Source: a virus
Lineage: Duplodnaviria > Caudoviricetes
Direction: 5' to 3' (one strand)
Virus record (IMG/VR): IMGVR_UViG_3300005805_007239
Coordinates: 6,121-70,120 of that record
DNA length: 64,000 bases
Under the pieces are notes generated by a model, which had not been told where the DNA came from, did no database searches, and saw nothing but the letters and a program-made list of their open reading frames with translations. The position numbers and the translations under genes are program-made. Numbering within the stretch: the stretch's first letter is position 1; each line of letters begins with the position of its first letter. Below, piece by piece: positions 3,479 to 53,435 of the stretch.

Positions 3479-3703
3479 TTAACGTGACTGACGGATCTTA
3501 GCCCAGCGGCCCTTATCGTCGCGAACGTTATAAAAGCGAGGCTGCAGAACAACCTGGCTAGAACGATTCACGAATCCAAGAACAGTGTACTTATTGGATG
3601 GAAAGCGACGAGTCACGGCATTCATGCGAGTCTCGACACTCTCGTCACCAAGAGTACGGGTATAGATGTCCTTTACAATCACGTTTTCGGATACGGTATT
3701 CAT
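3479..3703 (-). CDS. Small basic hypothetical protein
   Basis: 74-aa ORF followed immediately by a terminator. Ends in an RDDKGRW motif. Confidence 0.65.
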   Translation of the reverse strand: MNTVSENVIVKDIYTRTLGDESVETRMNAVTRRFPSNKYTVLGFVNRSSQVVLQPRFYNVRDDKGRWAKIRQSR

Positions 3704-35495: not shown

Positions 35496-36206
35496 TTAGT
35501 AAATTAATCCATCATTTCGTTTTCTATTACTATTATCAAACATTTTTCTATTAGTAATAGTAGTGTTCTGTTCATGATCTGGCATATCATCATAGGCATA
35601 CAGACCTTGGTGTGTTATATTAAATATATCCGCTCTAACAAGGTAATCCGGAGCAGCGGTAATACCGTATTTAACACAATGTGCAATTAAGTTCTTAGCC
35701 ATAGTAGGATCAACAGCATACGAATGAGTACGCAATAGAAAATGGTAGTTGTTACCATCAGATCCATGTAAAGGTATTTTACCTATAGGCCAGCCTCGTT
35801 TAGCCCATTCTATACAGCCTAGATAAACTATTGAATTAAAATGTTCAAATTGCTCGAACTTCTTAACCATAATAGCATCATGTTCTAATACTACTATTGG
35901 TTTATCTATCTTAGCACATTCTAACCAAAGACTAAAATGACTTAACGTACATGCAACTTCAGATTTAGTTTTATAATGATCTGTTACTTTAAGTATCTTA
36001 AAAATAGATTCATCTTTAAACCTTTCTGGAGTCTTTATACCCTCTCCGGTGCCATCGAAGGCATCCCAGACTTCATATTCCATGCCTACGTTTTTGCATG
36101 ATTCTTGGCACCGAAGAGAGTACTTTTCTGACTTCTCGTTACCTTTAATAGTAACAATATAAGCCTTTTCTACATTAGTTTGGTAAGAATAATTAAGATT
36201 TAGCAT
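35496..36206 (-). CDS. Glycosyltransferase family 25-like
   Basis: AYIVTI...S......S......E.WDA.DG...EVACTLSHFSLW......KPIVVLEHDA is a GT25-type motif set. Start placed at ATG 36206. Confidence 0.7.
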   Translation of the reverse strand: MLNLNYSYQTNVEKAYIVTIKGNEKSEKYSLRCQESCKNVGMEYEVWDAFDGTGEGIKTPERFKDESIFKILKVTDHYKTKSEVACTLSHFSLWLECAKIDKPIVVLEHDAIMVKKFEQFEHFNSIVYLGCIEWAKRGWPIGKIPLHGSDGNNYHFLLRTHSYAVDPTMAKNLIAHCVKYGITAAPDYLVRADIFNITHQGLYAYDDMPDHEQNTTITNRKMFDNSNRKRNDGLIY

Positions 36207-37926
36207 CTTCTTCTCTAGCAGCAATTACAGCTTCCAAGTCCTTATGGTCATAACGACCAGCCTTATGTACTTGTATCAGTATTCTAGTTGCTAGAGCCAC
36301 GTTATTAAGGTGGTTAATAGAATAGTCTAGTTCTTCTTGAGTAATCTTACCCTGCTTCATTCTTGCTTCATAAGGAGCGGTATATTCAAACTGAATATCG
36401 CATACCTCAATATCAATATCATGTTCAAAACCAAGTAATGATTCAGTATCTCCATTCTGTGCTTTCTGTATAAGATTTCTCTTATTAAACAGATGGAACA
36501 TACCTACAGTAATAGCTCTCTTATGAGTAGGATCATCTAGAGCGGTATCACATCTCCAGTGCGGTACAACAATTTCCCAGATTGCACCATTACCGCTGAT
36601 TCTATACATTTCTTTTATGACTTTAATAAAGTCATCTCCAGTAGTACCTAGATGCTCTAGAATGTCTTTAGCTACAATGTGGTCAAACTCACTGTCTTTC
36701 CAAGGCCAAGGAAACTGCTCAAGATCTACTACTTGATCTGGTTTTACTACTGCATACTTGTCGACGTTAAGGAAGTTCTTAAACTTCTTTAGACCGCAAC
36801 CAAGATTAATTCTCTTCTTTTCTCTATCTTCATTAGGTAGATCGATATGAGCAAGTTTATATTTTTCTTCTAGCTCTTTATAGATCTTCTGGAAAGGCTC
36901 ATTCCACTTTTCAAAGATCTTCTGACGGAAAACTCTGACTGTCTTATAGTATGGACTGCTCTCACTATTCGGAGAACCCGGAGTCCAAGTATGGTAAGGT
37001 AGTACCGGTACAAGTACCCATACCTCTTTACCCATAGCACCTGCAAGATGGGCAATACTTGTACATGAAGTAATTACTAAGTCTAAGTTAGCAATTGCTC
37101 CCATAGTATCTTCCCACGAAATAAGAAGATGCTGTAAATCAGTAATGCCTTCCGGTAGTTGAATAGTATTATGGTCTCTCTGTAAGCTATAAACCTGTAG
37201 TTCTGGGTACTTTGCTAGGTTGGTAATAAAGTTCTCTGGAAAGCGCCGGAACTGTTGATGTTCAAACTTAGGATTACCAGCCCAACGTATACCAACTTTA
37301 ATCTTATCTGACTTTATAATTGTCTTCCAGATGTCTACGGTTTCAGGTCTTGGGGTGAGATAAGGATCATTCGGAAACTTATCAAAAGTATGACCAGCAA
37401 TCCAACCAGCACTAAAACCAGGTATCCAGAAATCGTGTTGTACAAGGTGAGTCTGGTTTCTTGCAATTACTTTATCTACTCCCTTAATACGAGAGAAAAT
37501 AGATATCATTTCCGGTACAGTTGCAATATATACCTTTTCTGCGCCTAGTTCTTTATAGGTAGTAGCAAAGCGAGAATGAATAATTTCATCTCCATACCCG
37601 CCTTCAAGGGAAATAATAATAGACTTACCCTTTAGAGTATGTGTTTCTGGGTTATAAATTGGAGCATCGGTTCTAAGAGGTGGAGAACCATAAACATTCA
37701 AAAATCTTCCATGTTCTAGTAAGCGACATCCGGCTTGGTAATCTCCGTCTTGAATAAGAAACCACCCTCTATTAAAGCAATGACGGAACCATATATCTTG
37801 AGTGGCTTTACCGTTCATATCTAACACTTTATCGGGACCGAGCTTTTCTAATTTGTCTGAAATAGCCCGGGCTTCTTTGTTCTTACCTTCAATCTGAAGT
37901 TTTAACATTAAGTCAATGTCATGCAT
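36193..37926 (-). CDS. GT9-like (GT-B) glycosyltransferase fused to a class I SAM-dependent methyltransferase
   Basis: EGGYGDEIIHSRF...KVGIRWAGNP...LDLVITSCTSIAHLAGAMGKEVWVL is GT9/heptosyltransferase-like. INLGCG...VD...DLEQFPWPWKDSEFDHIVAKDILEHL is Methyltransf_11-like. Confidence 0.8.
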   Translation of the reverse strand: MHDIDLMLKLQIEGKNKEARAISDKLEKLGPDKVLDMNGKATQDIWFRHCFNRGWFLIQDGDYQAGCRLLEHGRFLNVYGSPPLRTDAPIYNPETHTLKGKSIIISLEGGYGDEIIHSRFATTYKELGAEKVYIATVPEMISIFSRIKGVDKVIARNQTHLVQHDFWIPGFSAGWIAGHTFDKFPNDPYLTPRPETVDIWKTIIKSDKIKVGIRWAGNPKFEHQQFRRFPENFITNLAKYPELQVYSLQRDHNTIQLPEGITDLQHLLISWEDTMGAIANLDLVITSCTSIAHLAGAMGKEVWVLVPVLPYHTWTPGSPNSESSPYYKTVRVFRQKIFEKWNEPFQKIYKELEEKYKLAHIDLPNEDREKKRINLGCGLKKFKNFLNVDKYAVVKPDQVVDLEQFPWPWKDSEFDHIVAKDILEHLGTTGDDFIKVIKEMYRISGNGAIWEIVVPHWRCDTALDDPTHKRAITVGMFHLFNKRNLIQKAQNGDTESLLGFEHDIDIEVCDIQFEYTAPYEARMKQGKITQEELDYSINHLNNVALATRILIQVHKAGRYDHKDLEAVIAAREEDAKS

Positions 37927-37962: not shown

Positions 37963-40900
37963 TTATTTTTTAATATATCCTCTTACACCATTAAAGTCTT
38001 TATTTGCACCAGCATCATCAATATCAGCAGTAATAGCTGATAGAGCGTAATCGTAATTAATTACATAGTTATTCTTCAAACTAGATCCCCAACTATATAA
38101 AACATTGGCATTATTAATTAGATAGTTTTGAGCTGCACCTGCAGATACTTTTTTCCAAGTACCTCCTATTCCTATTTGAGTAGGTGACGGATAAGAAGCT
38201 ATATTAGGAAATTCAGTTAATGTAGTATAATACGTATTGTTATTATTACCGGCAACTACTATTCTATTTGCATTTTCTAGAGTCGCGCTTTCCCCGGATA
38301 TAGGTACTGCCGGCCCTAACCGGCCACTATTTATCATAAAGACTTTATTATCATTACGTCTTGCTATTATACCACCAAAACCAAAAGCTGCTAAATGTAT
38401 TTGAGTCCAAGATAAACCTGTACCTAGTTGAACCGGGGACAAATTATAAATACTTTGACCGTTTTCGTTGAACGTATAAACACTACCACTACTAGTACCC
38501 CAACCCCAAATTGGGGTGCCTGGAAGAGCCTGAGGGCCTACCCAAGTAAATAAGGCTCCATCAGCTCTTATTGCCGCGCCGCCTTGTTTGATAAAACTCA
38601 TAACTTGGGTCCAGCTACTTGTACCGATCTGTATTGGGGACGATTGATTTATATACGTACCATCCCCTATACTACCATTACTATTATTACCCCAACCAAA
38701 TAAAGCTCCATCTGAACGTATAGCGTGACAACCAGTTACTTGAGTCCAGCTACTTGTACCGATTTGTACCGGAGATGATCTGCTAATTACAGTGTTATCT
38801 CCTACCTCTCCTGCAGTATTAATGCCCCAACAAAACAAGGAGCCGTCAAAACGAATAGCTTTTGTTGAATTACCAGTGTGGGTTACTTGAGTCCAGCTGC
38901 TTGTACCGATTTGTACCGGAGATGATCTGCTAATTACAGTATTGTCTCCTATTTGCCCACTAGTATTAGTCGCCCCCCAGCCGAATAAAGCCTTATCGCT
39001 TCTTATAGCAAACGCAGCTGTACCGCCTATACCTGTATACGTTGGAAGCATGCTCCAGCTACTAGATCCAATTTGTACCGGGGAAGATTTAGCAACTGTA
39101 GTACCGTCTCCAATACTCCCGCCACCGGCACCCCAGCCGAATAAAGCTCCGTCTGATCTTATTGCGTGTACAACTGCTGGCCCAACACAAACCTGAGACC
39201 AACTACTTGTACCGATTTGAACTGGAGATGATTTATTAACAGTAGTACCGTCCCCGATAGCCCCGGCAGTATTCAAACCCCAAGCAAATAACATTCCATC
39301 AGAACGTATTGCAGCTATAGGGCTACCGCCACTGATAGTAGTCCAACTATATGTATTAGTTCTATTATACCCCCAAGCATATGCTCTGTTGTTTATATCT
39401 ACCCCTAATCCATTATCATAACCAGCGCTTGCAAAGTTCCATGAGTTACCATCTACAAGTACTGGGCTTGTAATTAAACTACCAGTTAGTACAGGTGAGC
39501 TTCTACTAATAGTTGTACCGTCTCCAAAAGTGCCGCTAGCATTAAGTTCGTTTATTCCCCAGACAAGCATTGCACCATCATTACGTATCGCAAAAGTTGT
39601 ATTTGCTTTAGCATATACTTCTCTCCAAGGATTTGCGCCTATTTGTACTGGAGAGGATCTTGGTATAAGAGTTCCATCCCCGACTGTGAGGAGATTAGTA
39701 CCCCAGGCAAATAATAGATTAGCCCTAGTAATACCATATGTATTATTCTGGCCGGTGGTTAGCATAGACCAACTACTTGATCCAATTTGTACCGGAGATG
39801 ATTTATTTACTGTAGTATTATCTCCTATTTGGCCTTGAGCATTATTACCCCACGTAAATAAACCACCGTCAGAGCGTAAAGCTACTGTATGGGTATGTCC
39901 CGCATAAACCTGTGACCAACTACTGGTACCAATTTGTGTTGGAGATTTAACTACTGGATAAGAACCTAATTGTACTGGAGAACTCTTTGTAACTACAGTA
40001 CCATCACCGGTTGCACCTTGCGCGTTTTCACCCTGACCGAATAATACATAATCAGAACGTATTTCATGAGCGCTACTAACTTGTATCCAGCTACTTGTAC
40101 CAATTTGTACTGGAGATGATTTATCTGTAGTAGTACTATCTCCTATTACACCAGCTGGGCTGTTATTACGGCCCCAAGCAAATAGAGAACCACCTGAACG
40201 TATAGCGCGATTATGGTTAAAAAGTGCACCTGTTGCTATTTGCGTCCAGCTACTTGTACCGATCTGTACTGGAGATGAGGTAGAGGAAAGAGAACCTAAT
40301 AAGACCGGAGAGCTTCTTGAAATTAATGAAAATGTCGGTTGCCAAAAACCGGCATTACTACTATTGGTACTACCATCTACCACATTACCACCGGCCCAAT
40401 AAATTAAATTATCACTTCTTAATATTTGTGTACCGGCTACCCCTGTAATAACTTGTGTCCAACTACTTGTACCGATTTGTACCGCAGAAGATCTAGACAC
40501 TGTAGTATTATCTCCTAGAGCACCAGAGCCGCCATTTCCCCACGTAAATAATGCTCCATCAGTACGAATAGCCGCGGCATTAGCATACCCTAAAGATGCA
40601 GTTTTACTAGCAGTACTCCATGGCCCGTTATTGCCGATTTGTACCGGAGACGATCTACTTATTGCTGTAGTAGTAAGTCCAAGTACTCTATTTCCTGCGC
40701 CCCAGCTCCATAGAGTGCCATCACTTCTACGAGCAAAAGTTTGAACAACAGCAAAACCACCATAATCGTTTAAACCCTGCACTTGGGTCCAGCTACTTGT
40801 ACCGACTTGTATTGGAGAGGAACTATTAATTGTAGTATTGTATCCGAGCTGCCCGCCACCGTCTGCGAGTGACCCGTAGTTACTGCCCCAAGTAAATAGA

Positions 40901-43900
40901 GCACCATCTATACGTATTGCAGCTCCTGCGGCTGTTCCTGCTAAGACTTGCGACCAGCTACTTGTACCAATTTGTACTGGAGAAAAATAACACGATATCA
41001 ATCCAACTTGTACCGGGGAAGAGTTGTAACCTATATCAAGGGTATTACCGAAAACTGATCTAGCTATACCTATTTGTATGTAGTTTAAATCTCCTAATGT
41101 AGCCCCACCGGCTTCTCTGCCCCATGTAAATAATCCGCCATCTGTACGTATTGCCGCCCCGGTTATTTCATTACTGTTATCTCTGTAAGACGTGCCAAGT
41201 TGAGACCAGCTACTACTACCAATTTGTACCGGAGAAGATTTAGACACTGTAGTATTATCACCAATATTATAATTTGCACCGGAGCCCCATGCAAATAATG
41301 CACCGTCAGAACGTATCCCGTAGCTAGTATTACCGGACCGTACTTGAGTCCAGCTACTAGTACCGATTTGTACTGGAGAAGATTTATCTACAGTAGTACT
41401 ATCTCCTAATTGACCTAAACTATTAGACCCCCATGCAAATAAAGCCCCGTCGGACCGAATAGCATGTCTTGTTGAAATAAATGTCCAGCTGCTAGTACCG
41501 ATTTGTACTGGAGAGGACTTGTTAATAGTAGTATTATCTCCAAGCCATCCAAGCTGATTATACCCCCAAGCAAATAAGCTGCCGCCATTTCTTATTGCAA
41601 AAACAGTAGTATTACCGCCTCGTATTTGAGTCCAACTACTTGTACCTACTTGTACCGGAGATGAACGAGCAGTAGTTGCATTACTACCTAATGCTCCGTT
41701 AGTTCCGGATCCCCAAGTAAATAAACCGCCATCAGTACGTATTGCAACTGTTGTACCAGCCGATCCATCGACCTGGGTCCAGCTGCTGGTGCCGATCTGT
41801 ACTGGAGATAATCTGTTTATAACAGTATTATCTCCGAGAGCACCTGATCCATTGTTTCCCCAAGCAAATAATGCTCCATCAGTACGTATAGCGAAAGACT
41901 GATATTCTCCGGCGCCTACTTTTGTCCAACTACTTGTACCGATTTGTAGCGGAGAGTAATACTTACTAGAAATTGTATTGTCCCCCAAAACTCCGGAGCC
42001 GTTTATATCATATCCCCAAGTAAAAAGTAACCCATCAGAACGGACCCCTACAGCATGGCTAAAGCCAAACGCTACTTGAGCCCAAGATTTAGTATAATTT
42101 TTACGATCATTCCAGCTTTCATTAGTACCAAGTTGACCGGCATTAAACATACCCCAACCAAATAATGCACCGTCTGAACGTATCGCTAAAGTATTATATA
42201 AATTAGTACTAACTTGAGTCCAGCTACTTGTACCAATTTGAACCGGAGAAGAACGGACTGGCTCAGAATTATTTCCAGTCGCGTATAACCCTGCAGAAAC
42301 ATACGGGCCAGAATACTGACCGGACCAGGCAAATAAAGCTCCGTCTTCTCGTATAGCATATGTTGCAAGGTATGAATTAATGTCTCGCCATTTACTTGTT
42401 CCTATATAAACAGGAGAGGATCTACTAATAACAGTACCGTCTCCTAGGTTTCCGTTACCATTAAAGCCCCATGCGACTAATGCATTAGACCATTTTTCTA
42501 TAGCAAACGTAGAGCCTGGGGCATGCGTTATTTTTTCAGCTTTTAATGTACCAATTTGTACCGGAGATGATCTCTGTATTGTAGTATTATCTCCCACTTG
42601 CCCTAGAGAATTCCACCCCCAGCCAAAAACTGCATAATCAAAGTCTCTAATAGCATTAGCACTTCTAGAACCGTCGGAATCGACCATTATCCAGCTACTT
42701 GTTCCAACTTGTACAGGAGAAGATGTAGAATTGATAGTATTATTACCTAATGGCCCGTTAAGACCTTGACCCCACATAAATAAAGCTCCATCATTTCTAA
42801 TTGCGCCTGTGGTATCATTTAAGGTATTACCTACCCATTTCCAACTACGGGCATGTAAGTCTCTTGGAGATAGTACGACTTCAGATGTATTAGAACTTCC
42901 GAGTTCTCCTGAAGAACCAGAACGCCAAGTATATAATTTATTATCAGTTGATACTCCTAAATTAGCTTCAAGACCTGCATGCACCTGAGACCAGCTTATA
43001 TTAGTAATCTGGGTAGGAGTTCTATAAACCTTATCTAAACCGATTTGTACTGGAGAAGATCTCGGGGCTGTAGTACCATCACCGATCGGAAATGCTGCAC
43101 CTCCATCATAACCGTTATATCCCCAATGGTATATCTTAGAATTTCTTATACCGTAAGCAGTAGTATTTCCGCCTGTAGTAATTAAGGTCCAGCTATCTGT
43201 TCCTATTTGTACAGGGGAAGCATAAAATGGGTAGTAACCTATTGCAGTAGGAGTATTAGGAAGATTACCAGGTTGAAATTGTATACCGGCGTTATATGGA
43301 TAAGGGCCACCTGCAGAAACAAGCGGTACAGTGGCATTCCATAGGGTTTGACCGGCGCCAGGTCCCCACCCATAAAGAGTCTTATCGGAACGTATTGCAA
43401 CAACACCTACTTGGTCTATGATAGAACCAAAACCAAATAACGGGTAATTATGTACAAACGACCAACTACTACCAATGCCAATTTGTACAGGAGAGCTAGT
43501 GTTGTATCTTGAAGCATTACCTACATTATAAGTAATGCTACTTGATATTGAATTGAGGCCCCAACCAAATAAAGCACCATCTACCCGTATAGCAAAATTA
43601 GCTAAGCTACCCATAGTGGATATAAACGTCCAGCTACTTGTACCAATTTGTACCGGTGACGATTTAGCTACTGTAGTACCATCTCCTAACTGACCATTAG
43701 AGTTAGCTCCCCAGGTAAATAAGGCGCCGTCAGATCTTATAGCGGCGTTACCACTGACAATCGTCCAGCTACTTGTGCCAATTTGTACCGGAGAAGATCT
43801 CTGTATTGTAGTGCCATCTCCTAACTGACCGTCCTGATTAACCCCCCAAGTAAATAAAGCACCGTCAGACCTTATAGCAGAAAAAGCAGGAAGAGAGTTA

Positions 43901-46900
43901 CCTGTTCTATACCCTGCTACCTGTATCCAGCTACTTGTACCTACCTGCACTGGTGAAGACCGAGACACGGTAGCATTTGATCCTAAAGCGCCTGCAACAC
44001 CGTGACCCCAAGTAAATAAAGCACCGTCAGATCTAATGGCCGCGTATGTATTATTAAAAGTAGATGAAGTAAGCGCAACCTGTATCCAGCTGCTTGTACC
44101 AATTTGTACCGGGGAAGATTTATTTATTGTAGTGTTATCACCTAACTGACCGGAATTATTAGCTCCCCAAGTAAATAAGGCACCGTCAGATCTTATAGCG
44201 GCGCTATTATTTGGACATGCGTCTATCTGGGTCCAGCTACTTGTACCTATTTGTAAAGGGTATATTATACTACTAAAACCTGCGAATTCAGGTATACCAC
44301 CACTCCCGGAAGAGCTGTTCCCTAAAAAGAACAGACCACCATCATTTCTCAGGGCTAAAATCTGTCCAGTGCCAAAGCCATTGCTACCGCCGCCCTTAAT
44401 TTGCGTCCAAGATTGTCTATAGTCATTATAACTAATATTGTTAATACCTAAACCTCCAGGGTCAATATTACTAGTTTGATTAAGTCCCCAGCCAAACAGG
44501 GCACCATCAGATCGTATTGCAAAACTATTTCTACCAGCTCGTACCTGAGACCAACTACTTGTACCTACCTGTACCGGGGAAGAACGAGGCTGAAAAGTAC
44601 CATCCCCGAGAATGCCTGAAAATGCAATATTAGGCCCCCAGGTAAACAACCTTCCATCTGAGCGGATTGCAGCGGTATAGCTGAGCATTGAAACTTGCGT
44701 CCAGCTACTTGTGCCGATTTGTACTGGGGATGATCTGTTTATAATAGTATTATCTCCAATACTACCAAAATTGTTATACCCCCAGGTAAATAACCCGCCA
44801 TCAGATCTTATAGCCCCGGTTATACTAGTACCAATAGCTACTTGAGTCCAACTACTTGTACCTATTTGTACGGGTGAGGACTTATTTATAGTGGTATTGT
44901 CTCCTAACTGTCCAACATTATTATATCCCCATGTAAATAGACTACCACCAGTTCTTATAGCTATACTACTATCAGCACGAGAGCTAATTTGAGTCCAGCT
45001 ACTTGTACCGACTTGCACTGGAGAAGACCGTGACACAGTAGTACCCGCCCCTAGTTGACCAAAATTATTTAATCCCCAAGTAAATAAAGCACCATCACTA
45101 CGCATTGCGAGTGTATGCCTATCACTCGCTACTACTTGAGACCAATTACTAGTACCGATCTGCACCGGAGAGGATTTAGTAACGGTCGTACTATCACCTA
45201 ACTGACCGTTAGCATTAATTCCCCAAGTATATAATTTACTATTCGAGTCTATTGCAGCAACGTGATTTGTTCCAGCACTTATCTGAGTCCAAGAAATATT
45301 ATCTCCTGCAAAGAAGGTACCGTTACCCGGGCCTGTGTCTCCGTACGCACCCCAAGTAAACAAGGATCCGTCTGAACGAATCGCATAGCTTCTTCCTGTA
45401 GGAGAGTTTACTCCAATACCAAGACCATATGTAACTTGTGTAAAACTAGTTGAACCGCCGATTAATACAGGAGACGATCTATTAATTGTCGTTCCGTCTC
45501 CAATTTGATAAAGATCATTTCTACCCCATGCAAATAAAGCGCCATCTTTACGAATTGCTATAGGTGTGTACGCGTAACCATAAGTTTGACCCGATGCCGC
45601 GATGGCCATCCCTGCAGCAAGTTGAATCCAGCTACTTGTACCAATCTGTACCGGTGAAGATTTTTTGACTGTAGTGTTATCGCCAAGCGCGCCAAAATCA
45701 TTAAGACCCCAAGCAAACAAGGCTCCGTCTGAACGTATTGCGTATGTAGAAGCTCCTTGTGCGCATACAACTTGAGTCCAGCTACTTGTACCGACCTGTA
45801 CCGGGGAATAGGTATTAATTGTACTGTTTATACCTAATTGCCCATCAAGATTAGGCCCGAAAATAAATAATGCACCATCAGTTCTTATGTCTGCACCATG
45901 CCAAGTATTTGAATATGTACCGAGGGAAGACCAAGATTGAGCAGCATTAGTAATATTAATACTATTTTGTCCAAGCTCACCATAAAGATTGGATCCCCAA
46001 GCAAATAGCCCTCCATCCGACCGTATTGCTATAGTATGCGCAAAACCCTGGCCAACTTGAGTCCAGCTACTTGTACCAACTTGTACCGGGGAAGATCTAT
46101 TTAAATAAGGGTATACACTTTCTCCGAGTACTCCATAATCTCCTTTACCCCAGGTAAACAGTCTACCATCAGAACGTATTGCTGCGGCATTATTATTACC
46201 AGCTGCAACAACTGTCCAACTACTTGAGCCAAGTTGAACTGGAGAGGATCTATTTAAAGTACTATTATCTCCTGCAGCACCATATACATTATAACCCCAA
46301 GCAAACAGAGCACCGTCTGAACGTATAGCAACGCTATGATCCGCGCCTGCCCCTACTTTACTCCAGCTACTTGTACCGATCTGCACTGGAGAAGATTTAG
46401 ATATAATAGTATTATCTCCAAGAGCGCCACCATTATCGTTACGACCCCAAGCAAATAACGCACCATCTGTTCGTATTGCTAAAGCATGAAACTGCCCGGC
46501 TGCAACCTGAGACCAGCTACTTGTACCAAGTTGTACCGGGGATGAACGAAAACCGAATACACCTATACCTAATTCACCGTAATTATTACCAGCGCCCCAA
46601 GCTAATAATGCTCCATCCGAACGTATACCAAAAGTACGGAACTGGGTAGCACTTGCAAAACCGTTCGCAACTTGGGTCCAAGATAAAGTGCCATCCACGT
46701 TAACTGTGTTATTACCTATTTGCCCGACAGAGTTATCTCCCCAGCCAAATAAACCACCATCAGATCTAATTGCATGGGTTGTAAGATTATTAGTACCAAT
46801 TTGAATCCAGCTACTCGTGCCGACTTGCACAGGAGAAGAGAAATTAGCAGTAAAAGAATTTATATTTAATCCTAATTGGGCATTAGAGTTACTACCCCAG

Positions 46901-49900
46901 GCAAATAAGGCACCGTCTGTACGTAATGCCATAGTATGGGATAAACCTAATCTAACCTGTGTCCAGCTACTGGTACTAATTAGTACCGGGGACGATCTAT
47001 TTATTGAAGTATTGTCTCCAAGCTGACCGCTAGTATTCAGACCCCAGGCATAAAGTTGACCGATACTATTGATAGCTGCTGTATGAGATGCACCGCCATG
47101 AACTTGACTCCAACTACTTGTACCAATTTGTACCGGCCAGCTCTTGTTTACAGTAGTACCATCTCCTATTGTTCCAGCCACATTATATCCCCATGCATAT
47201 AATCTACCATTACGAGATACTATAGCAGTACTATTCCAACCTGGTCCTACAGAAACTGGACTAACGAAATCCGAGACGCCTGTTGCAAAGTTTTCGTTGT
47301 TACCCCATCCAAATAGGCTGCGATTACTCGTAATACCTACAGTAGTTCTCTCCCCGGCATTAACAAGAGCCCAGCTACTAGTACCGATTTGTACTGGGGA
47401 AGACCGATTAATAGTAGTACCATCTCCTAATTGATAGGTATTATTAAGACCCCATGCAAATAACCCACCATCGGTACGTATAGCAGATGCATAGCTTTTT
47501 CCGGCTGTTACAGCTGTCCAACTACTTGTACCAATTTGCACCGGGGATTGTACAAAAGTATTGAAGCCTATTTGTACCGGAGATGAACGAGATAAAGTCG
47601 TTCCATCCCCTACAGAGTCAAGAGGGGAGATTAATGCGCCGCCGCCCCAAGCGAATAAAGCTCCATCCCCTCTAATAGCTATTACATTAGCAGTAGAGTC
47701 TTCTGAAGCAATAGCAGTCCAACTACTTGTACCGACCTGAACCGGAGACGATCTATAAATAGTACTATTTTGTGCTAATTGCCCTACACCGCCATCACCC
47801 CATGCAAACAGTGCACCATCTAAACGAATTGCTGCGGAGGTATAAGTTGGAAGAGAGAATACCTTAGTCCAACTACTTGTACCAATTTGTACCGGGGAGG
47901 ATTTATCTACAGTAGTACCGTCGCCTATTTGGCCTGCACTATTACCGCCCCAAACAAATAAACTTTTATCGTTTCTTATTGCTATAGCATTATAAGGCCC
48001 TAAAACGATTTGGGACCAGCTACTTGTACCTATTTGAACCGGAGATGAAAATGCACTAGTCTGAATCTGTACCGGAGAGGAAAGATTTCGAGGCCCAGTA
48101 TTATCTACATTAAGACCTCCCCAATAAAATAAAAGACGGTCACTACGCAAAGCAGAAAAAGTCAAAAGACCTGGAGTAGCATAAACTTGAATCCAGCTAC
48201 TTGTACCAATTTGTACCGGAGATGATTTGTTTACTGTAGTATTATCTCCAATACCACCGGTTGAGGCTTGGCCCCATGTAAAAAGAGCTCCATCAGTACG
48301 CAAAGCAATAGTAGTAGTTCTAGAAGATATAACTTGTGTCCAACTACTAGTTCCGATTTGTACCGGGGAAGATTTATTCGTAGTGGTACCATCTCCAAGT
48401 ACCCCGGTAGTGTTACTACCCCATGCAAATAACCCTCCATCCGAGCGTATTGCTAAAGTTAAAACTATATTAGTTACAGTCTGCGTTGCGCCATACACCA
48501 ATGTCCAGCTACTTGTACCAATTTGTACCGGTGAAGACTTACTTACTGTAGTACCGTCTCCTAATTGCCCGGTACTGTTAAGACCCCAAGCAAAAAGCGC
48601 TCCATCAGTACGCACTGCAAAACTAACTTGATTACCATTTCCAGATTTTAACTGAGACCAACTACTCGTGCCAATCTGTACCGGGGATGACCTATTCAGA
48701 GTGGTTCCGTCGCCAAGTTCTCCAGAGGTATTTACTCCCCAAGTAAATAACGCGCCATCAGTACGTAAGGCTAAAATATGACCCGGATTTAAATTAATTT
48801 GCGACCAACTACTTGTACCAATTTGTACCGGGGAATATTGAGCCGTAGTAGAATTGTTGCCAAGTTGACCTGCAGTACCTGTTCCCCAAGTAAATAGTCT
48901 ACCATCAGAGCGTATTGCAGCTGCAATTGAGGTACTTACACTTAAATAGACTTGAGTCCAACTACTCGTGCCTATTTGTACTGGAGATAAATACATTCCA
49001 GGGCTAGTGCCTACTGTAGGTGGTATTCCACCGGAAAAGTTATCCCCCCAACCAAATAAAGCTCCATCTGAACGTATTGCAAGTCTTGCGTAGTCTCCTG
49101 TAGCCACTTGAGTCCAGCTTTGGTCTCCAATTTTTTGTAAAAACCGTGGTCCACCTAAAGCGTTAGGATCAACTCCGGTAAAACCGTCTCCGGTGTAACC
49201 ACCGTACCCTGTATATAATTTATTATCTACACTAATTAGAGCGTTAAGATGATACCCTCTGCCGACTTGAGACCACGAAATATTTAAATTAGATGTAGCA
49301 CCATTATTACCAAAAGCTCCACCTGTATAAAGAATATCACTATCTCCCCAAGCAAATAAAGCGCCATCAGATCGTATGGCAGCGCCGAACATAGAGGCAT
49401 TATATAAAGATCTTTTTAAAGCTACTTGGCTCCAGCTACTAGTGCCTACTTGCACTGGAGATGAACAGTGATTATCCCCGGGGTATAAGCTTTGTCCTAA
49501 TGCTCCGTATGAATTAACACCCCATGTAAATAAAGCTCCATCTGACCGTATTGCAGCTCCGTTTGCCCCTTCAATACAAACTTGAGTCCAACTACTTGTA
49601 CCTATTTGAGCGTAAGAAAAATTATCAATAGTACTATTGGTACCTAACTCTCCATACGAGTTTCTCCCTCTTAAAAAAAGAGCACCGTCAGATCTTATAT
49701 AAGCCGTATTTCTTTCATAACTGTAAGTATCATTCGCTGCTACTTCTTGATAAATGCTTTGCGCGCTATTAACATAAAACTGATTATAATTTTCATCACT
49801 ATATTGAGCCGGAATTTTAATAGTCTTAGGCCATAAATTACTATATACCGATGTATTATTGGCTATTGAGTTTGTATACGGGCCTAAAATAACCGGGGCG

Positions 49901-50379
49901 CCATTATTACGTAATGCAAATCTTGTAAAATAGCCAGCACCTACCGAAGTATATGAATAACCAGCAATAGTACCATTTATAGTAGTATTATTACCAATTT
50001 GACCGGCTGTATTATCTCCCCAGGCAAATAGACCACCGTCTTTACGTATTGCATAAGAATTTGAGTTACTAGCGGCAACCGAAACCCAACTACTTGTACC
50101 AATCTGTACAGGAGAAGAAACAAATCTAAAAGCAAGATTATTTCCTACTTGGCCGAAGTCGTTACTACCCCAAGCAAACAGAGCGCCGTCAGAACGTATT
50201 GCAACAACATGGCTTGTACCTTCTGCAACTGCTGACCAATAGCTTGTACCGACTAAAACTGGAGAGCTTTTATATACAAAAGTACCGTCCCCTATTTGTC
50301 CGTATACATTATCTCCTCCAAGGTACAGTTTAGATGCACCTTTGAGCGGAGAAGCCATTAGCCATCTTACTAGATTCAT
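37963..50379 (-). CDS. Giant RCC1/BLIP-II repeat protein (about 78 blades, about 11 beta-propellers)
   Basis: 4138 aa of about 50-aa repeats SSPVQIGTSSW.QV..G.....AIRSDGALF.WG.N..GQLGD.TT, which match the RCC1 repeat consensus. Blades counted by hand. Confidence 0.9.
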   Translation of the reverse strand: MNLVRWLMASPLKGASKLYLGGDNVYGQIGDGTFVYKSSPVLVGTSYWSAVAEGTSHVVAIRSDGALFAWGSNDFGQVGNNLAFRFVSSPVQIGTSSWVSVAASNSNSYAIRKDGGLFAWGDNTAGQIGNNTTINGTIAGYSYTSVGAGYFTRFALRNNGAPVILGPYTNSIANNTSVYSNLWPKTIKIPAQYSDENYNQFYVNSAQSIYQEVAANDTYSYERNTAYIRSDGALFLRGRNSYGELGTNSTIDNFSYAQIGTSSWTQVCIEGANGAAIRSDGALFTWGVNSYGALGQSLYPGDNHCSSPVQVGTSSWSQVALKRSLYNASMFGAAIRSDGALFAWGDSDILYTGGAFGNNGATSNLNISWSQVGRGYHLNALISVDNKLYTGYGGYTGDGFTGVDPNALGGPRFLQKIGDQSWTQVATGDYARLAIRSDGALFGWGDNFSGGIPPTVGTSPGMYLSPVQIGTSSWTQVYLSVSTSIAAAIRSDGRLFTWGTGTAGQLGNNSTTAQYSPVQIGTSSWSQINLNPGHILALRTDGALFTWGVNTSGELGDGTTLNRSSPVQIGTSSWSQLKSGNGNQVSFAVRTDGALFAWGLNSTGQLGDGTTVSKSSPVQIGTSSWTLVYGATQTVTNIVLTLAIRSDGGLFAWGSNTTGVLGDGTTTNKSSPVQIGTSSWTQVISSRTTTIALRTDGALFTWGQASTGGIGDNTTVNKSSPVQIGTSSWIQVYATPGLLTFSALRSDRLLFYWGGLNVDNTGPRNLSSPVQIQTSAFSSPVQIGTSSWSQIVLGPYNAIAIRNDKSLFVWGGNSAGQIGDGTTVDKSSPVQIGTSSWTKVFSLPTYTSAAIRLDGALFAWGDGGVGQLAQNSTIYRSSPVQVGTSSWTAIASEDSTANVIAIRGDGALFAWGGGALISPLDSVGDGTTLSRSSPVQIGFNTFVQSPVQIGTSSWTAVTAGKSYASAIRTDGGLFAWGLNNTYQLGDGTTINRSSPVQIGTSSWALVNAGERTTVGITSNRSLFGWGNNENFATGVSDFVSPVSVGPGWNSTAIVSRNGRLYAWGYNVAGTIGDGTTVNKSWPVQIGTSSWSQVHGGASHTAAINSIGQLYAWGLNTSGQLGDNTSINRSSPVLISTSSWTQVRLGLSHTMALRTDGALFAWGSNSNAQLGLNINSFTANFSSPVQVGTSSWIQIGTNNLTTHAIRSDGGLFGWGDNSVGQIGNNTVNVDGTLSWTQVANGFASATQFRTFGIRSDGALLAWGAGNNYGELGIGVFGFRSSPVQLGTSSWSQVAAGQFHALAIRTDGALFAWGRNDNGGALGDNTIISKSSPVQIGTSSWSKVGAGADHSVAIRSDGALFAWGYNVYGAAGDNSTLNRSSPVQLGSSSWTVVAAGNNNAAAIRSDGRLFTWGKGDYGVLGESVYPYLNRSSPVQVGTSSWTQVGQGFAHTIAIRSDGGLFAWGSNLYGELGQNSINITNAAQSWSSLGTYSNTWHGADIRTDGALFIFGPNLDGQLGINSTINTYSPVQVGTSSWTQVVCAQGASTYAIRSDGALFAWGLNDFGALGDNTTVKKSSPVQIGTSSWIQLAAGMAIAASGQTYGYAYTPIAIRKDGALFAWGRNDLYQIGDGTTINRSSPVLIGGSTSFTQVTYGLGIGVNSPTGRSYAIRSDGSLFTWGAYGDTGPGNGTFFAGDNISWTQISAGTNHVAAIDSNSKLYTWGINANGQLGDSTTVTKSSPVQIGTSNWSQVVASDRHTLAMRSDGALFTWGLNNFGQLGAGTTVSRSSPVQVGTSSWTQISSRADSSIAIRTGGSLFTWGYNNVGQLGDNTTINKSSPVQIGTSSWTQVAIGTSITGAIRSDGGLFTWGYNNFGSIGDNTIINRSSPVQIGTSSWTQVSMLSYTAAIRSDGRLFTWGPNIAFSGILGDGTFQPRSSPVQVGTSSWSQVRAGRNSFAIRSDGALFGWGLNQTSNIDPGGLGINNISYNDYRQSWTQIKGGGSNGFGTGQILALRNDGGLFFLGNSSSGSGGIPEFAGFSSIIYPLQIGTSSWTQIDACPNNSAAIRSDGALFTWGANNSGQLGDNTTINKSSPVQIGTSSWIQVALTSSTFNNTYAAIRSDGALFTWGHGVAGALGSNATVSRSSPVQVGTSSWIQVAGYRTGNSLPAFSAIRSDGALFTWGVNQDGQLGDGTTIQRSSPVQIGTSSWTIVSGNAAIRSDGALFTWGANSNGQLGDGTTVAKSSPVQIGTSSWTFISTMGSLANFAIRVDGALFGWGLNSISSSITYNVGNASRYNTSSPVQIGIGSSWSFVHNYPLFGFGSIIDQVGVVAIRSDKTLYGWGPGAGQTLWNATVPLVSAGGPYPYNAGIQFQPGNLPNTPTAIGYYPFYASPVQIGTDSWTLITTGGNTTAYGIRNSKIYHWGYNGYDGGAAFPIGDGTTAPRSSPVQIGLDKVYRTPTQITNISWSQVHAGLEANLGVSTDNKLYTWRSGSSGELGSSNTSEVVLSPRDLHARSWKWVGNTLNDTTGAIRNDGALFMWGQGLNGPLGNNTINSTSSPVQVGTSSWIMVDSDGSRSANAIRDFDYAVFGWGWNSLGQVGDNTTIQRSSPVQIGTLKAEKITHAPGSTFAIEKWSNALVAWGFNGNGNLGDGTVISRSSPVYIGTSKWRDINSYLATYAIREDGALFAWSGQYSGPYVSAGLYATGNNSEPVRSSPVQIGTSSWTQVSTNLYNTLAIRSDGALFGWGMFNAGQLGTNESWNDRKNYTKSWAQVAFGFSHAVGVRSDGLLFTWGYDINGSGVLGDNTISSKYYSPLQIGTSSWTKVGAGEYQSFAIRTDGALFAWGNNGSGALGDNTVINRLSPVQIGTSSWTQVDGSAGTTVAIRTDGGLFTWGSGTNGALGSNATTARSSPVQVGTSSWTQIRGGNTTVFAIRNGGSLFAWGYNQLGWLGDNTTINKSSPVQIGTSSWTFISTRHAIRSDGALFAWGSNSLGQLGDSTTVDKSSPVQIGTSSWTQVRSGNTSYGIRSDGALFAWGSGANYNIGDNTTVSKSSPVQIGSSSWSQLGTSYRDNSNEITGAAIRTDGGLFTWGREAGGATLGDLNYIQIGIARSVFGNTLDIGYNSSPVQVGLISCYFSPVQIGTSSWSQVLAGTAAGAAIRIDGALFTWGSNYGSLADGGGQLGYNTTINSSSPIQVGTSSWTQVQGLNDYGGFAVVQTFARRSDGTLWSWGAGNRVLGLTTTAISRSSPVQIGNNGPWSTASKTASLGYANAAAIRTDGALFTWGNGGSGALGDNTTVSRSSAVQIGTSSWTQVITGVAGTQILRSDNLIYWAGGNVVDGSTNSSNAGFWQPTFSLISRSSPVLLGSLSSTSSPVQIGTSSWTQIATGALFNHNRAIRSGGSLFAWGRNNSPAGVIGDSTTTDKSSPVQIGTSSWIQVSSAHEIRSDYVLFGQGENAQGATGDGTVVTKSSPVQLGSYPVVKSPTQIGTSSWSQVYAGHTHTVALRSDGGLFTWGNNAQGQIGDNTTVNKSSPVQIGSSSWSMLTTGQNNTYGITRANLLFAWGTNLLTVGDGTLIPRSSPVQIGANPWREVYAKANTTFAIRNDGAMLVWGINELNASGTFGDGTTISRSSPVLTGSLITSPVLVDGNSWNFASAGYDNGLGVDINNRAYAWGYNRTNTYSWTTISGGSPIAAIRSDGMLFAWGLNTAGAIGDGTTVNKSSPVQIGTSSWSQVCVGPAVVHAIRSDGALFGWGAGGGSIGDGTTVAKSSPVQIGSSSWSMLPTYTGIGGTAAFAIRSDKALFGWGATNTSGQIGDNTVISRSSPVQIGTSSWTQVTHTGNSTKAIRFDGSLFCWGINTAGEVGDNTVISRSSPVQIGTSSWTQVTGCHAIRSDGALFGWGNNSNGSIGDGTYINQSSPIQIGTSSWTQVMSFIKQGGAAIRADGALFTWVGPQALPGTPIWGWGTSSGSVYTFNENGQSIYNLSPVQLGTGLSWTQIHLAAFGFGGIIARRNDNKVFMINSGRLGPAVPISGESATLENANRIVVAGNNNNTYYTTLTEFPNIASYPSPTQIGIGGTWKKVSAGAAQNYLINNANVLYSWGSSLKNNYVINYDYALSAITADIDDAGANKDFNGVRGYIKK

Positions 50380-50975
50380 ATTACCGGTGCTTCAGTAGTA
50401 GTGGTAGTACTTGTAGTAGTACTAGTTGTGGTTGTTGGTTCGGGTTGTACGTATACTGGCCAGACTATATTAAATGGGTCTTCTTGTAGAGTTATATCTG
50501 CAAGAGCAGACATATGCGCATCTAACGCTTCTATAGTATCAGGTTGAGGTAAAGATAATCTTTCATGTCTATAATATCTATTATACCTCCATTCAAAATC
50601 TTTCATAAACTGATCTCTAATACCTCTTATTACAGACCATTGGAATTGTTTATTTTCATATTCTAGTACTTCTGGTGTTAAAGGGGCCGCTCCACCACCT
50701 CCACCACCAGGACTTGGTTCAGGAGTAGGTAGATTTTCTATAACTGGCTCTTCATAGACTACTCCATCAATTACGGTATAACTGTAATCAACTATTTTTT
50801 GCGTAGCCGGATTAAAATAATACGGATTTTTTATTACTGTCTTCCACCCTAAAGCATCTAGCTCAGCCGGATAATTTAACAAATTAGGTAGATTACTAAT
50901 ATTTCTCCAATTAGTTGGTAAAATGTCGCATGTTTCTTTAACTATATTGTCTTCTACGTAAGCAAAATTTGCCAT
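50376..50975 (-). CDS. Tail fibre assembly chaperone / adapter-like protein
   Basis: WSVIRGIRD.....EW........ALADIT.Q.DPF.I.WP resembles the phage tail-assembly-chaperone domain. N-terminus MANFAYVEDNIV. C-terminal poly-Thr tail. Confidence 0.7.
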   Translation of the reverse strand: MANFAYVEDNIVKETCDILPTNWRNISNLPNLLNYPAELDALGWKTVIKNPYYFNPATQKIVDYSYTVIDGVVYEEPVIENLPTPEPSPGGGGGGAAPLTPEVLEYENKQFQWSVIRGIRDQFMKDFEWRYNRYYRHERLSLPQPDTIEALDAHMSALADITLQEDPFNIVWPVYVQPEPTTTTSTTTSTTTTTEAPVI

Positions 50976-50986
50976 GGTGCTATAGA

Positions 50987-52012
50987 TTATTTACTATCGG
51001 CCATAGATAATAAAGCTCTCCAATCAGCACCATTATCATTAGTAGAGAATACTATTATATCCGTACCAGAAGTAGTTAATGTCGAAGCAACTCCACCAGG
51101 CCATCTTGTAGTTGTAGGCCAGATCATAGTATAGGAACCGCCATTAGTTAATTCTAATATAAATCCGCCAGCATATCCAGCTGAAGGAGAGTTACTAATA
51201 GTCCACGTTACGTTACCGGTTGCGGTTGCTGAGAAATAATTTGCTGTGCTATAATTTATATTTGTTGTTCCGGTAACACTACCTAAACTTATCGCACTTA
51301 CATTAGGGCCTGAAACGCCACCACCACCGCCGGCGGCACCACTAAAACCACTAAAGCCACTAAAGCCAGACGTACCTATACCGCTGTACCCTGAATAACC
51401 ACTAAAACCGCTTATGCCTGAATACCCAGAGTAGCCTGAAAACCCGCTTATACCTGAATATCCGCTATACCCACTAAAGCCACTTATACCGGAATAACCG
51501 GAATAACCACTTATGCCTGAATACCCTGAATATCCAGAATAACCAGATGTACCTATACCAGAATAACCACTATAACCACTTCTTCCGCTATACCCGCTAT
51601 AGCCTGAAGTACCTGCTCCACCGCTTGCGTATATTGTTCCAGTAGCAGAAATATTACCAACAACAGTTAAAGCTTCATTTGGACTACTAGTGCCTATACC
51701 GACTTTAGTACCGGATACTACTAAAGCATTAGTACCATACGTACCCATTACAACACTGTCATTACTGTTTACTTCTAATATAGGTAAACCAGTAATATCC
51801 CCAACAGACATAACAACACCAGTAAGAGCATCTGTTATACTAAATAAGGAACCAGCTGAACCTATAAATGCTACTTGACCTTCAGGTAGTACCTGTAAGG
51901 TTATAGATGACGCAGAAGGATTTAACGCGCTTAACCCAGCTGATAAGCCTACAAACCGGATACTCGGATTGGTTGTTGTGTTGCGATTAGGTGTTATGAT
52001 CAGGTCTGGCAT
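50987..52012 (-). CDS. Short tail-fibre-like protein with a GYS tract
   Basis: VGIGTSSPNEALTVVGNISATG fibre motif, about 95 aa of GYS repeats, then a C-terminal beta domain (ILELTNGG...WP....WPGG....LT..GTDI..F). Confidence 0.7.
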   Translation of the reverse strand: MPDLIITPNRNTTTNPSIRFVGLSAGLSALNPSASSITLQVLPEGQVAFIGSAGSLFSITDALTGVVMSVGDITGLPILEVNSNDSVVMGTYGTNALVVSGTKVGIGTSSPNEALTVVGNISATGTIYASGGAGTSGYSGYSGRSGYSGYSGIGTSGYSGYSGYSGISGYSGYSGISGFSGYSGYSGISGFSGYSGYSGISGFSGYSGYSGIGTSGFSGFSGFSGAAGGGGGVSGPNVSAISLGSVTGTTNINYSTANYFSATATGNVTWTISNSPSAGYAGGFILELTNGGSYTMIWPTTTRWPGGVASTLTTSGTDIIVFSTNDNGADWRALLSMADSK

Positions 52013-52032: not shown

Positions 52033-52728
52033 CTATAAGCCGTATCTTCCTCTTAATGCGTTAAAGTTTTGGAGTATTTCTTGGTCTGACAATGATTTGT
52101 TATATACCATAAAGGATGATAAGTCTATTCCTGGACTTCTATAGTTATATCCTCCAATATGCAATGGTTCGCTGTTGACCGTTCTGTCGGCTAAGGCCAA
52201 TGTAACACTATCACGTACAGTATTTTTGTATACCATCATCGTACCATTTCTTGATTGAAATACCCAATTTGCCCAAACTCCTATTGGCGTTGTTATTGGA
52301 TCGGTTGTATCCATATGTTGTTGAGAACCTCCCACGTTGTTCCAAGTGCAATGAAATCTACTAGTCGCGCCAGCATAAAACCATATACCTGGTCTTCTGT
52401 TTCCATTATCGTTTCCTTTTAGGAATAACTGCGTCCAAGTACCATTATCATCAAAATTTATTTTCATCCAAAGAGAATATGCCCAGTTTAAATATGAATA
52501 GTTTAAATCCGAACTGTGAGCAATATCTATATACTCATTTGCAGAATCCAACGTAAAATTCAAAGAGCCATTTGCAAATGTTACTCCTGATTTAATGTCC
52601 CCATTGTTCCCTCGTTTTGTTAAATCAGTCCACACTGTACCTGTACCAGGGTAACTTTTAGTATTACCTGCATCTAAGCAAACTACTAAACCATCTGTAA
52701 TAATATCTGGACCACCGGCTACACTCAT
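52033..52728 (-). CDS. LamG/ConA-like lectin-fold virion protein (paralogue 3)
   Basis: P.I.TDGLV.CLDAGN.KSYPGTGT.W.DL...GN...YNKSLS..EILQNFNA.RGRY.L. Confidence 0.8.
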   Translation of the reverse strand: MSVAGGPDIITDGLVVCLDAGNTKSYPGTGTVWTDLTKRGNNGDIKSGVTFANGSLNFTLDSANEYIDIAHSSDLNYSYLNWAYSLWMKINFDDNGTWTQLFLKGNDNGNRRPGIWFYAGATSRFHCTWNNVGGSQQHMDTTDPITTPIGVWANWVFQSRNGTMMVYKNTVRDSVTLALADRTVNSEPLHIGGYNYRSPGIDLSSFMVYNKSLSDQEILQNFNALRGRYGL

Positions 52729-53435
52729 AAATTATACCTTCCTTTATTTGCATTAAAATTTTGAAGTACTTCTGTCGCGGCTAATGCTCTATTATATACT
52801 CGGACTATAGGTATAGCGCCATCAATCATATTATTCGCGGTGAGCGTGGAGTCCCATCTACGAGCTATACGTATTGCCCCTCCAGATGCGGCAGTACCTA
52901 CATAAGCAGTAGAAGAAAAAAGAGTACCATTAACATATAGTTTTATTGATGCACCGTCATAGGTACCACAATATTGATACCATACTCCAGCTGAAGGCAC
53001 ATGCGGGGACGTGTGTCTCCAATTACCATTAAAAAAAGCTGCATAAATACCTGGAAAAGTAACACCATCTACAGATGTCGTGAGAGCAAAATTTAAATTA
53101 AAAGTAACTGCATTATATATATTAGTTACTAAAGCAGATACGGTAGAATTAGCTGATGGTACTGTAGTAAATTTTACCCAAGCTTCAGCAGTCCAGTTAG
53201 GGGTATTAGCTAGACTTGTTGATGTTTCACCGTATTGAACTCCCGTACGGCTAAAAGTTAATATACCGTTATTTGCAGTGCTAAATGTTGGGGTATTTGT
53301 TAGAGTTACAGTGTTACTATTTCTACTTATATCAGTCCATGTAGCTCCAGTACCTGGGTAGCTTTTAGTATTACCCGAATCTACGCAAAGTATTAAACCA
53401 TTAGTAGCTATTTTTGGACTGTTAAAATAACTCAT
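52725..53435 (-). CDS. LamG/ConA-like lectin-fold virion protein (paralogue 2)
   Basis: Same terminal motifs, plus WYQYCGTYDG..IKLYVNG...YNRAL. Confidence 0.8.
   Translation of the reverse strand: MSYFNSPKIATNGLILCVDSGNTKSYPGTGATWTDISRNSNTVTLTNTPTFSTANNGILTFSRTGVQYGETSTSLANTPNWTAEAWVKFTTVPSANSTVSALVTNIYNAVTFNLNFALTTSVDGVTFPGIYAAFFNGNWRHTSPHVPSAGVWYQYCGTYDGASIKLYVNGTLFSSTAYVGTAASGGAIRIARRWDSTLTANNMIDGAIPIVRVYNRALAATEVLQNFNANKGRYNL

Follow-up and report, generated by a model that had tools for sequence, protein, structure and literature searches.

A 4138-residue RCC1-repeat protein of a tailed phage that reads as a nested, branching tree of eleven propellers

A stretch of 64,000 nucleotides from an uncultured, T4-like tailed phage (Duplodnaviria; Caudoviricetes; positions 6,121 to 70,120 of the IMG/VR record IMGVR_UViG_3300005805_007239), called the window in the following, contains a single uninterrupted open reading frame (ORF) of 12.4 kb at 37963..50379 (-), which codes for an RCC1-repeat protein of 4138 amino acids (aa; P0001 in the comparisons). 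The best explanation for the repeat pattern of this protein, with a probability of roughly 0.78, is that one chain forms eleven RCC1-type propellers which are inserted into each other as a tree. A nested tree had been proposed before from the letters of the window (the sequence-only reading). It is now supported by sequence arithmetic, by the conservation of the junctions, by the boundaries of exchangeable cassettes and by relatives with the same design, whereas the predicted structure did not show the closure of the rings.

The families found by Pfam in the protein are of the RCC1 type alone. PF25390 reaches 1544 bits (cut-off 150) and passes the curated threshold, PF00415 reaches 1054 bits (cut-off 21.7) over 38 stretches and PF13540 reaches 687 bits, which by profile thresholds makes the protein a member of the RCC1-like repeat/RCC1-like domain (RLD) superfamily. 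The protein was split at each SPVQI-type motif and then parsed by hand. The repeat has the order D (SPVQIG), A (SSWTQV), B (AIRSDG), C (LFAWG) and GQLGDGT loop, and with one C-strand WG anchor counted per blade the protein comprises 78 blades.

The regular order is broken at 18 junctions of two kinds. At nine open junctions the GQLG loop leads directly into an A strand and strand D is absent (aa ~133, 363, 1036, 1230, 1478, 1693, 1985, 2760, and 3675; nucleotides 49975, 49290, 47270, 46695, 45945, 45300, 44425, 42100, and 39355). The SPVSV sequence at the open junction of aa 1036 resembles a D strand yet is an A strand; the following unit is short by exactly one strand, and SPVSVGPGWNSTAIVSRNGRLYAWG matches SWTQVAAGFAHTIAIRSDGGLFAWG residue by residue. 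At nine close junctions two D motifs are paired at a distance of 10-12 aa (aa 768/779, 933/945, 2376/2388, 2442/2454, 3121/3133, 3357/3369, 3467/3479, 3628/3638, and ~4053/4065), the first of them being degenerate in two of the nine (TPTAIG, TLTEF). All nine breaks and all nine doubled motifs are found where the sequence-only reading had placed them, each of the breaks lacking its D strand. In gene order the junctions form the balanced string (())((((())())))(), which reproduces the bracket string given there.

The blades per level add up to 7 for the root and to 7, 8, 7, 7, 14, 7, 7, 7, and 7 for the brackets, so that exactly seven blades are found in 8 of the 10 levels; the earlier count of seven per bracket, apart from one with eight and one with 14, was the same. 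The two parts of each split host complement each other in blades (4+3, 4+3, 5+2, 6+1, 4+3, and 3+4; root 3+2+1+1) and, for all nine inserts, also in strands, with A-B-C before the insert and D as the first strand after it. By sequence, the host is complete once the insert is removed in this protein, in its two orthologues and in five smaller relatives. When the 18 junctions were distributed at random among the 78 blades with the bracket string fixed, none of 2,000,000 trials gave eight levels of seven (p<5e-7), and the best result, seven levels of exactly seven, was seen once. If the blades are simply numbered along the chain, a multiple of 7 coincides with only 3 of the 18 junctions. On these counts, the nested branching parse is the sole reading that closes every ring.

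According to this parse, whole propellers, from their A strand to their D strand, would be spliced into host blades, in the loop that leads from the GQLG motif to strand D, and some of the inserted propellers would host further inserts. Each insert would be tethered by a linker of ~8-14 residues after the GQLG loop and by one of 5-13 residues before the D strand of the host. The resulting tree can be written as Root[ B1[B2], B3[ B4[ B5a[B6[B7]] + B5b[B8] ] ], B9 ], and the hand parse agrees with the earlier proposal in the eleven propellers, in the nesting to five levels below the root and in a root made from both termini. The segments from the N to the C terminus are given below; their evidence is the hand-parsed motif split, plus the items named for each of them.

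Root piece 1, aa 1-133, 49981..50379 (-): half blade C0-D0, blade 1 and strands A-C of blade 2; ends at open 1; 82% identical to P0002
B1 N part, aa 134-363, 49291..49980 (-): 4 blades, of which the first two are degenerate; ends at open 2; 39% identical to P0002
B2, leaf insert, aa 364-778, 48046..49290 (-): 8 blades (7 in P0002 and P0003); its own D strand comes last, at close 1
B1 C part, aa 779-944, 47548..48045 (-): D strand of the interrupted blade and 3 blades (4+3=7); ends at close 2
Root piece 2, aa 945-1037, 47269..47547 (-): strand D of blade 2, blade 3 and strands A-C of blade 4; ends at open 3
B3 N part, aa 1038-1230, 46690..47268 (-): 4 blades, the first with the A strand SPVSVGPG; ends at open 4
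B4 N part, aa 1231-1479, 45943..46689 (-): 5 blades; ends at open 5
B5a N part, aa 1480-1693, 45301..45942 (-): 4 blades; ends at open 6
B6 N part, aa 1694-1986, 44422..45300 (-): 6 blades; ends at open 7; predicted local distance difference test (pLDDT) score of AlphaFold2 >90; fits 6 of the 7 blades of UVR8/HERC2 with Z 37
B7, deepest leaf insert, aa 1987-2387, 43219..44421 (-): 7 blades; the C7-D7 loop is long and D7 degenerate (TPTAIG); ends at close 3
B6 C part, aa 2388-2453, 43021..43218 (-): strand D of blade 6 and blade 7 (6+1=7); ends at close 4; pLDDT 63-73
B5a C part, aa 2454-2610, 42550..43020 (-): strand D and 3 blades (4+3=7); putative seamless boundary to B5b
B5b N part, aa 2611-2761, 42097..42549 (-): 3 blades, the first with the deviant A strand TLKAEKITH, which is kept in P0003; ends at open 8
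B8, leaf insert, aa 2762-3132, 40984..42096 (-): 7 blades; ends at close 5
B5b C part, aa 3133-3368, 40276..40983 (-): strand D and 4 blades (3+4=7); ends at close 6
B4 C part, aa 3369-3478, 39946..40275 (-): strand D and 2 blades (5+2=7); ends at close 7
B3 C part, aa 3479-3637, 39469..39945 (-): strand D and 3 blades (4+3=7); ends at close 8; ~2250 residues past the B3 N part
Root piece 3, aa 3638-3676, 39352..39468 (-): strand D of blade 4 and strands A-C of blade 5; ends at open 9; 100% identical to P0002
B9, leaf insert, aa 3677-4064, 38188..39351 (-): 7 blades, hypervariable; ends at close 9
Root piece 4, aa 4065-4138 and stop codon, 37963..38187 (-): strand D of blade 5, blade 6 and a tail tentatively read as A0-B0

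The root propeller would consist of aa 1-133, 945-1037, 3638-3676, and 4065-4138. Its N terminus reads KLYLGG-GQIGDGT-SPVLV (C0, D0), and the chain of human RCC1 likewise begins with a C-D half blade. The C-terminal tail ..ITADIDDAG..FNGVRGYI is kept in P0002, in P0003 and in the fragment P0241, and may be read as the strands A0-B0 which pair with the N-terminal C0-D0, so that the root would close in the manner of RCC1. For the velcro closure proposed earlier, the N-terminal C-D half blade and an A-B-like C-terminal tail thus fit, and the assignment of the tail as A0-B0 is the part that we infer. A search for shorter proteins with the same C-terminal tail returned the fragment P0241 and P0209 only.

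For the bracket with 14 blades, the reading is a seamless tandem of two propellers, B5a and B5b, which would hold one insert each and may meet at the deviant, conserved blade TLKAEKITH at aa ~2611. No hidden junction was found within this level. A tenth open junction at aa ~2500 was considered and rejected, as the blade there has a normal length and a D strand, though a degenerate one (LSPRDL; QYNIQER in P0003).

The same repeats occur in over 880 proteins with 2275-7242 aa and in thousands with 415-1323 aa. Two of the large relatives are P0002 (4062 aa, 77% identical, IMG/VR contig, locus L001) and P0003 (3894 aa, 49% identical). All 18 junctions are kept in both of them. Each close junction retains its two D motifs, while the linker of 5-13 aa that separates these differs in sequence and length. 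In B2, both relatives have seven blades and lack the ~48 aa at P0001 aa 481-535; the extra blade of P0001 is not a recent duplicate of an adjacent blade, and B2 could here be an 8-bladed ring or carry a looped-out extra blade.

The divergence from P0002 is distributed as a mosaic. Identity amounts to 82, 90, 100, and 73% for the four pieces of the root and to 78-99% for the block B3-B8, whereas the region from open 1 to close 2 (B1 with B2 inside) reaches 39-49% and the region from open 9 to close 9 (B9) 56%. It is ~95% until the GQIGNN loop before open 1 and until ...YNRTNTYSWT at open 9, drops abruptly to ~45% past these two points, and is back at ~97% precisely where close 2 and close 9 have their second D strand. 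The divergence is therefore bounded by open 1/close 2 and by open 9/close 9, as expected for inserts that are separable units of evolution. Insertion predicts such a divergence bounded by matched brackets, and a grouping into rings that ignores the junctions gives no reason for it. Judged by these identity profiles, the matched brackets, including an outer pair around a nested pair, act as cassettes in a conserved root. Compared with P0003, too, the root is the most conserved part and B9 the least conserved one (29% identity).

A k-mer search of the relatives revealed no relative that differs by one whole insert. The near-identical proteins P0008 and P0072 differ by a 418-aa block of ~8 blades (P0008:2534-2951), with direct repeats inside canonical blades at its ends. 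This difference was rejected as the excision of an insert: it is explained by in-register recombination or assembly collapse and does not run from junction to junction. Other pairs of giant RCC1 proteins with 80-86% identity (P0091 vs P0074/P0093, P0075 vs P0084, and P0082 vs P0088) differ in the presence of domains of ~170-215 aa between the blade strands D and A. These proteins carry Pfam LamG-type families. The insertion site is a second one, and the fold is a different one. In P0014 (4328 aa), one open-junction sequence (GNEPITPTRLNLDSWSDTDAG...) is present at least three times, which suggests that an insert was duplicated along with its junction.

Five smaller relatives of 700-1100 aa were also parsed by hand, and in each of them every level totals seven blades: P0129 reads 1(4(7)3)6, P0236 reads 2(7)5, P0209 reads 1(7)4(7)2, P0145 reads 3(7)2(7)2 and P0146 reads 5(7)1(7)1. 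All five start with a C-D half blade and end with an A-B half blade. As far as the parsed repeats tell, the nested design is not confined to the protein of the window and is common among metagenomic phage RCC1 proteins.

A linear counterpart is provided by UTS52180.1 (L007:6131-8233), a protein of the cultured Synechococcus phage BUCT-ZZ01 with 700 aa and 14 RCC1 blades, which is 45% identical to aa 1694-2449 and whose gene adjoins a tail-fibre gene. It is seamless, with no strand absent or doubled. Another cultured Synechococcus phage, S-SRM01, shows 13 places that match. A linear tandem with an RCC1-type 2+2 closure needs no junction motifs, and the motifs in the 4138-aa protein therefore call for another explanation. 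The annotation of UTS52180.1 as 'BNR repeat domain protein' looks wrong, as the protein is a seamless 14-blade RCC1 protein.

Structure prediction was carried out with AlphaFold2. A model of aa 1581-2559 from a three-row alignment reached a pLDDT of 27 and was unusable. A second model, of aa 1694-2449 (B6 with B7 inside), was built from 81 rows of generic 14- and 21-blade relatives and has a pLDDT of 80.5 overall, with low confidence at the loop of the open junction and at the long loop together with the D strand of B7 itself, and with 63-73 for the returning host blade. UVR8, HERC2, RPGR, and RCC1 superpose on this model with Z 31-38 and a root-mean-square deviation (rmsd) of 2.0-2.9 Å over 277-292 residues, and BLIP-II with Z 23. 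The RCC1-like alignments span the model residues 1 to 282-295, which corresponds to 6 of the 7 template blades, and the match to these templates ends at the open junction. In the model, the six host blades are four-stranded and lie in 7-fold propeller geometry; they form an open arc, which appears as an unfinished ring that the next blade in the sequence does not close. This argues against simple linear sevens. Modelling of bracketed units had been proposed as a check of the tree, and it yielded the six-blade host arc with 7-fold geometry without a closed 7-blade host ring. Consecutive linear groups of seven blades, which the sequence-only reading had named as a refuting outcome, are not what the model shows, and nested closure is not shown either.

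Several points weigh against the nested tree. No RCC1-like superposition reaches the model residues 695-756, i.e., the returning host blade at aa 2388-2449, and templates of the WD40 type and with eight blades span the residues 294 to 727-756. In the model, the returning blade seems to have joined the insert, so that an arc of six blades would precede a ring of eight; this topology was read from the aligned ranges of VIA-align and not from coordinates. The proteins aligned for the model differ in topology, and such rows favour contacts between segments that are adjacent in the sequence. In addition, the parse relies on the eye for about ten degenerate blades (WG anchors 163, 390, 1505, 2015, 3445, 4010, and others) and for two D strands that are degenerate as well, and the hand parse was not reproduced by hidden Markov model domains, by a semi-Markov Viterbi over strand blocks or by a regular-expression token parser, all three of which over- or under-called junctions where blades are degenerate. 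The rule of seven also has exceptions, namely the eight blades of B2, the bracket with 14 blades and B9 of P0003, where about 4 of the 7 blades are left after four deletions of 28-50 aa. The loss in P0003 would be either a breach of the rule or an assembly collapse in the P0003 contig. A comparison of the blade registers between propellers for whole-propeller duplications across a split gave a weak signal (z about 1-2).

The strongest competing explanation is that the chain is a linear string of irregular propellers with 6, 8 or other blade numbers, some of them three-stranded, in which the open junctions are domain boundaries and the doubled D motifs are loops or decoration. It would account for the appearance of the model, in which an arc of six blades is followed by a ring of residues 294-756 that includes the blade assigned to the host, and for the eight blades of B2, as natural 8-bladed propellers exist (NirF, BamB, and Sqt1 are among the structural matches). 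With the open junctions as boundaries, however, the groups would comprise 3, 4, 13, 4, 5, 4, 6, 14, 17, and 8 blades and could not close, and we know of no rings of 3 to 6 RCC1 blades with a strand absent. The modelled arc, with an rmsd of 2.0-2.7 Å to six blades of UVR8, keeps the 7-fold geometry of an unfinished ring. A linear string would also leave unexplained why D strands are missing as often as they are doubled, why these sites nest properly, why the blade counts of the host parts complement each other (with the p-value given above), why each close junction has conserved both of its D strands and why the cassettes begin and end at junctions. True linear tandems like the BUCT-ZZ01 protein are seamless. 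This explanation is therefore regarded as unlikely.

Considerably less probable still is an open, non-closing beta-sheet superhelix or fibre of RCC1-like blades with the junction motifs as kinks. The extreme length, the fibre gene cluster and the lack of further domains would suit it, but the RCC1 profile matches are strong, six consecutive blades are modelled as an arc of a 7-fold propeller, and the strict sevens per level, here and in the five smaller relatives, would have no reason.

An artefact, i.e., misassembly, repeat collapse or a pseudogene-like array with no defined fold, is suggested by the metagenomic origin of the contig, the repetitive protein and the blade-level indels among relatives (B9 of P0003; P0008 vs P0072), but is hardly credible given a frame that is open across 12.4 kb, a longest exact DNA repeat in the ORF of 41 bp, protein motifs that are strongly conserved and the same architecture in two independent relatives from other samples. 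Of the 12,387 31-mers of the ORF, 30 recur, and the 23 copies of SSPVQIGTSSW are all encoded differently. The DNA copies are synonymously scrambled, and the array is therefore old, kept by selection at the protein level and safe from repeat collapse during assembly.

Among known systems, RCC1, UVR8, the RLDs of HERC1/HERC2, RPGR, RCC2, and BLIP-II belong to the same repeat family (PF00415/PF25390) as the 4138-aa protein. The known RLDs are single 7-bladed propellers or stand in a row, whereas here, in up to five levels, whole propellers would interrupt blades of other propellers between strands C and D, and the inserted ones would run from A to D without strand exchange. The likeness to RCC1, UVR8, and BLIP-II implies no guanine nucleotide exchange factor, photoreceptor or inhibitor function for the phage protein. 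Tandem multi-propeller proteins (Aip1, 1nr0; IFT/WDR proteins; UTS52180.1) also carry many propellers per chain, but they are seamless and each ring is built from consecutive blades, while junctions interrupt the series here. Beyond single RLDs, no close relative of the 4138-aa protein was found in the PDB.

A foreign domain which leaves a propeller loop, after which the chain comes back to complete the propeller, is known from the UBR5 RLD (PDB 8p82; PMC10830417) and from the case of the integrin alpha I domain (PMC12422189). The UBR5 RLD aligns with the model of aa 1694-2449 over chain residues 45..835 (224 aligned, Z 14), which is an interrupted RLD in a solved structure. In UBR5 and the integrins the insert has another fold and occurs once, at one level; in the phage protein the insert would have the fold of its host, and insertion would be recursive and branching and always at the same loop type. 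RCC1 propellers in or near the fibre genes of tailed phages are also represented by the fibre of Pseudomonas phage PollyC, which combines a T7 tail-fibre N-terminal domain with RCC1 repeats, and by the jumbo coliphage phAPEC6 with eleven RCC1-like proteins, for which the authors suggest a DNA-condensing role and regard the function in phages as unknown (PMC7247149). Neither of these is described as nested. The sequence-only reading knew of no described protein with this architecture, and a search of the full-text literature likewise gave no account of propellers placed inside propellers, whether once or recursively; one candidate, PMC12906663, was rejected, as the match was due to RCC strain numbers only.

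The gene lies within the tail/fibre module of a tailed phage. It is preceded by the following gene:

Upstream gene, 199 aa, 50376..50975 (-): weak likeness to tail-fibre assembly proteins (PF16778, E-value 0.0036, below the cut-off; phrog_4912, E-value 1e-4)

The stop codon of this gene overlaps with the start codon of the giant ORF in the sequence ATGA. The neighbours of the giant ORF are collagen-like fibre genes, a tail-fibre gene (phrog_9017 and others) and this tail-fibre-assembly-like gene, and a head-closure gene and a T4-like large terminase gene are located farther along the window. The large terminase is 31-33% identical to those of cyanophages and other T4-like terminases.

Two of the collagen-like genes are giants themselves, at 25007-32152 (2381 aa) and 54159-60332 (2057 aa), with E-values for the collagen triple-helix repeat of 5.5e-201 and 4.4e-176, respectively. 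Smaller fibre genes with collagen are located at 50987-52012 and 34074-35417. Three tandem paralogues of 231, 236, and 241 aa at 52033-54157 match the C-terminal part of the PHROG 24074/8510 virion structural proteins. The gene that follows the giant ORF downstream, at 36193-37926, codes for a 577-aa protein with a methyltransferase domain (phrog_6636, E-value 1e-11; Pfam Methyltransf_11 slightly under the cut-off). The terminase ORF at 62639-64000 matches the C-terminal (nuclease) half of T4-like large terminases only and its frame exits the end of the window, so that it probably is the window edge that truncates the gene.

The protein is probably a virion-borne multivalent adhesin of the tail-fibre apparatus with its specificity in B1[B2] and B9. 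Three observations point to this role: the position of the gene, the RCC1 repeats that some annotated fibres of phages carry (PollyC), and the fast divergence of two cassettes while their scaffold is conserved. The conserved root and the deep branch would form the scaffold, and B1[B2] and B9, which attach directly to the root, would be the host-specific binding modules. It speaks against the role that Pfam finds no N-terminal fibre domain for attachment to the baseplate or to another fibre in the 4138-aa protein, in which it differs from the PollyC fibre; the chain opens directly with the root propeller.

Domain insertion is usually a single event, one level deep, between different folds. The architecture proposed here would take it to an extreme beyond the descriptions in the searchable literature. 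If the nested tree is correct, it is an extreme of topology and folding, as the outer rings would have to wait for the synthesis of thousands of inner residues before they close and the two chain ends would meet in one blade of the root, 4100 residues apart. The folding-order problem and the dendritic, multivalent scaffold, both raised by the sequence-only reading, would both follow from such a tree. The nested arrangement is also a test for structure predictors, which failed here, and the smaller relatives of 700-1100 aa make the question of nesting directly testable.

Nesting would account for the large number of giant 'RCC1 family' proteins in viromes with blade numbers in multiples of seven. 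It would be a general route to branched multivalent binders without oligomerisation, and would allow phages to diversify their host recognition by swapping whole brackets. Overall, it is likely that tailed phages evolved single-chain 'dendrimers' by recursive splicing of RCC1 propellers at one loop type, with brackets as exchangeable cassettes, and that these are widespread in metagenomes.

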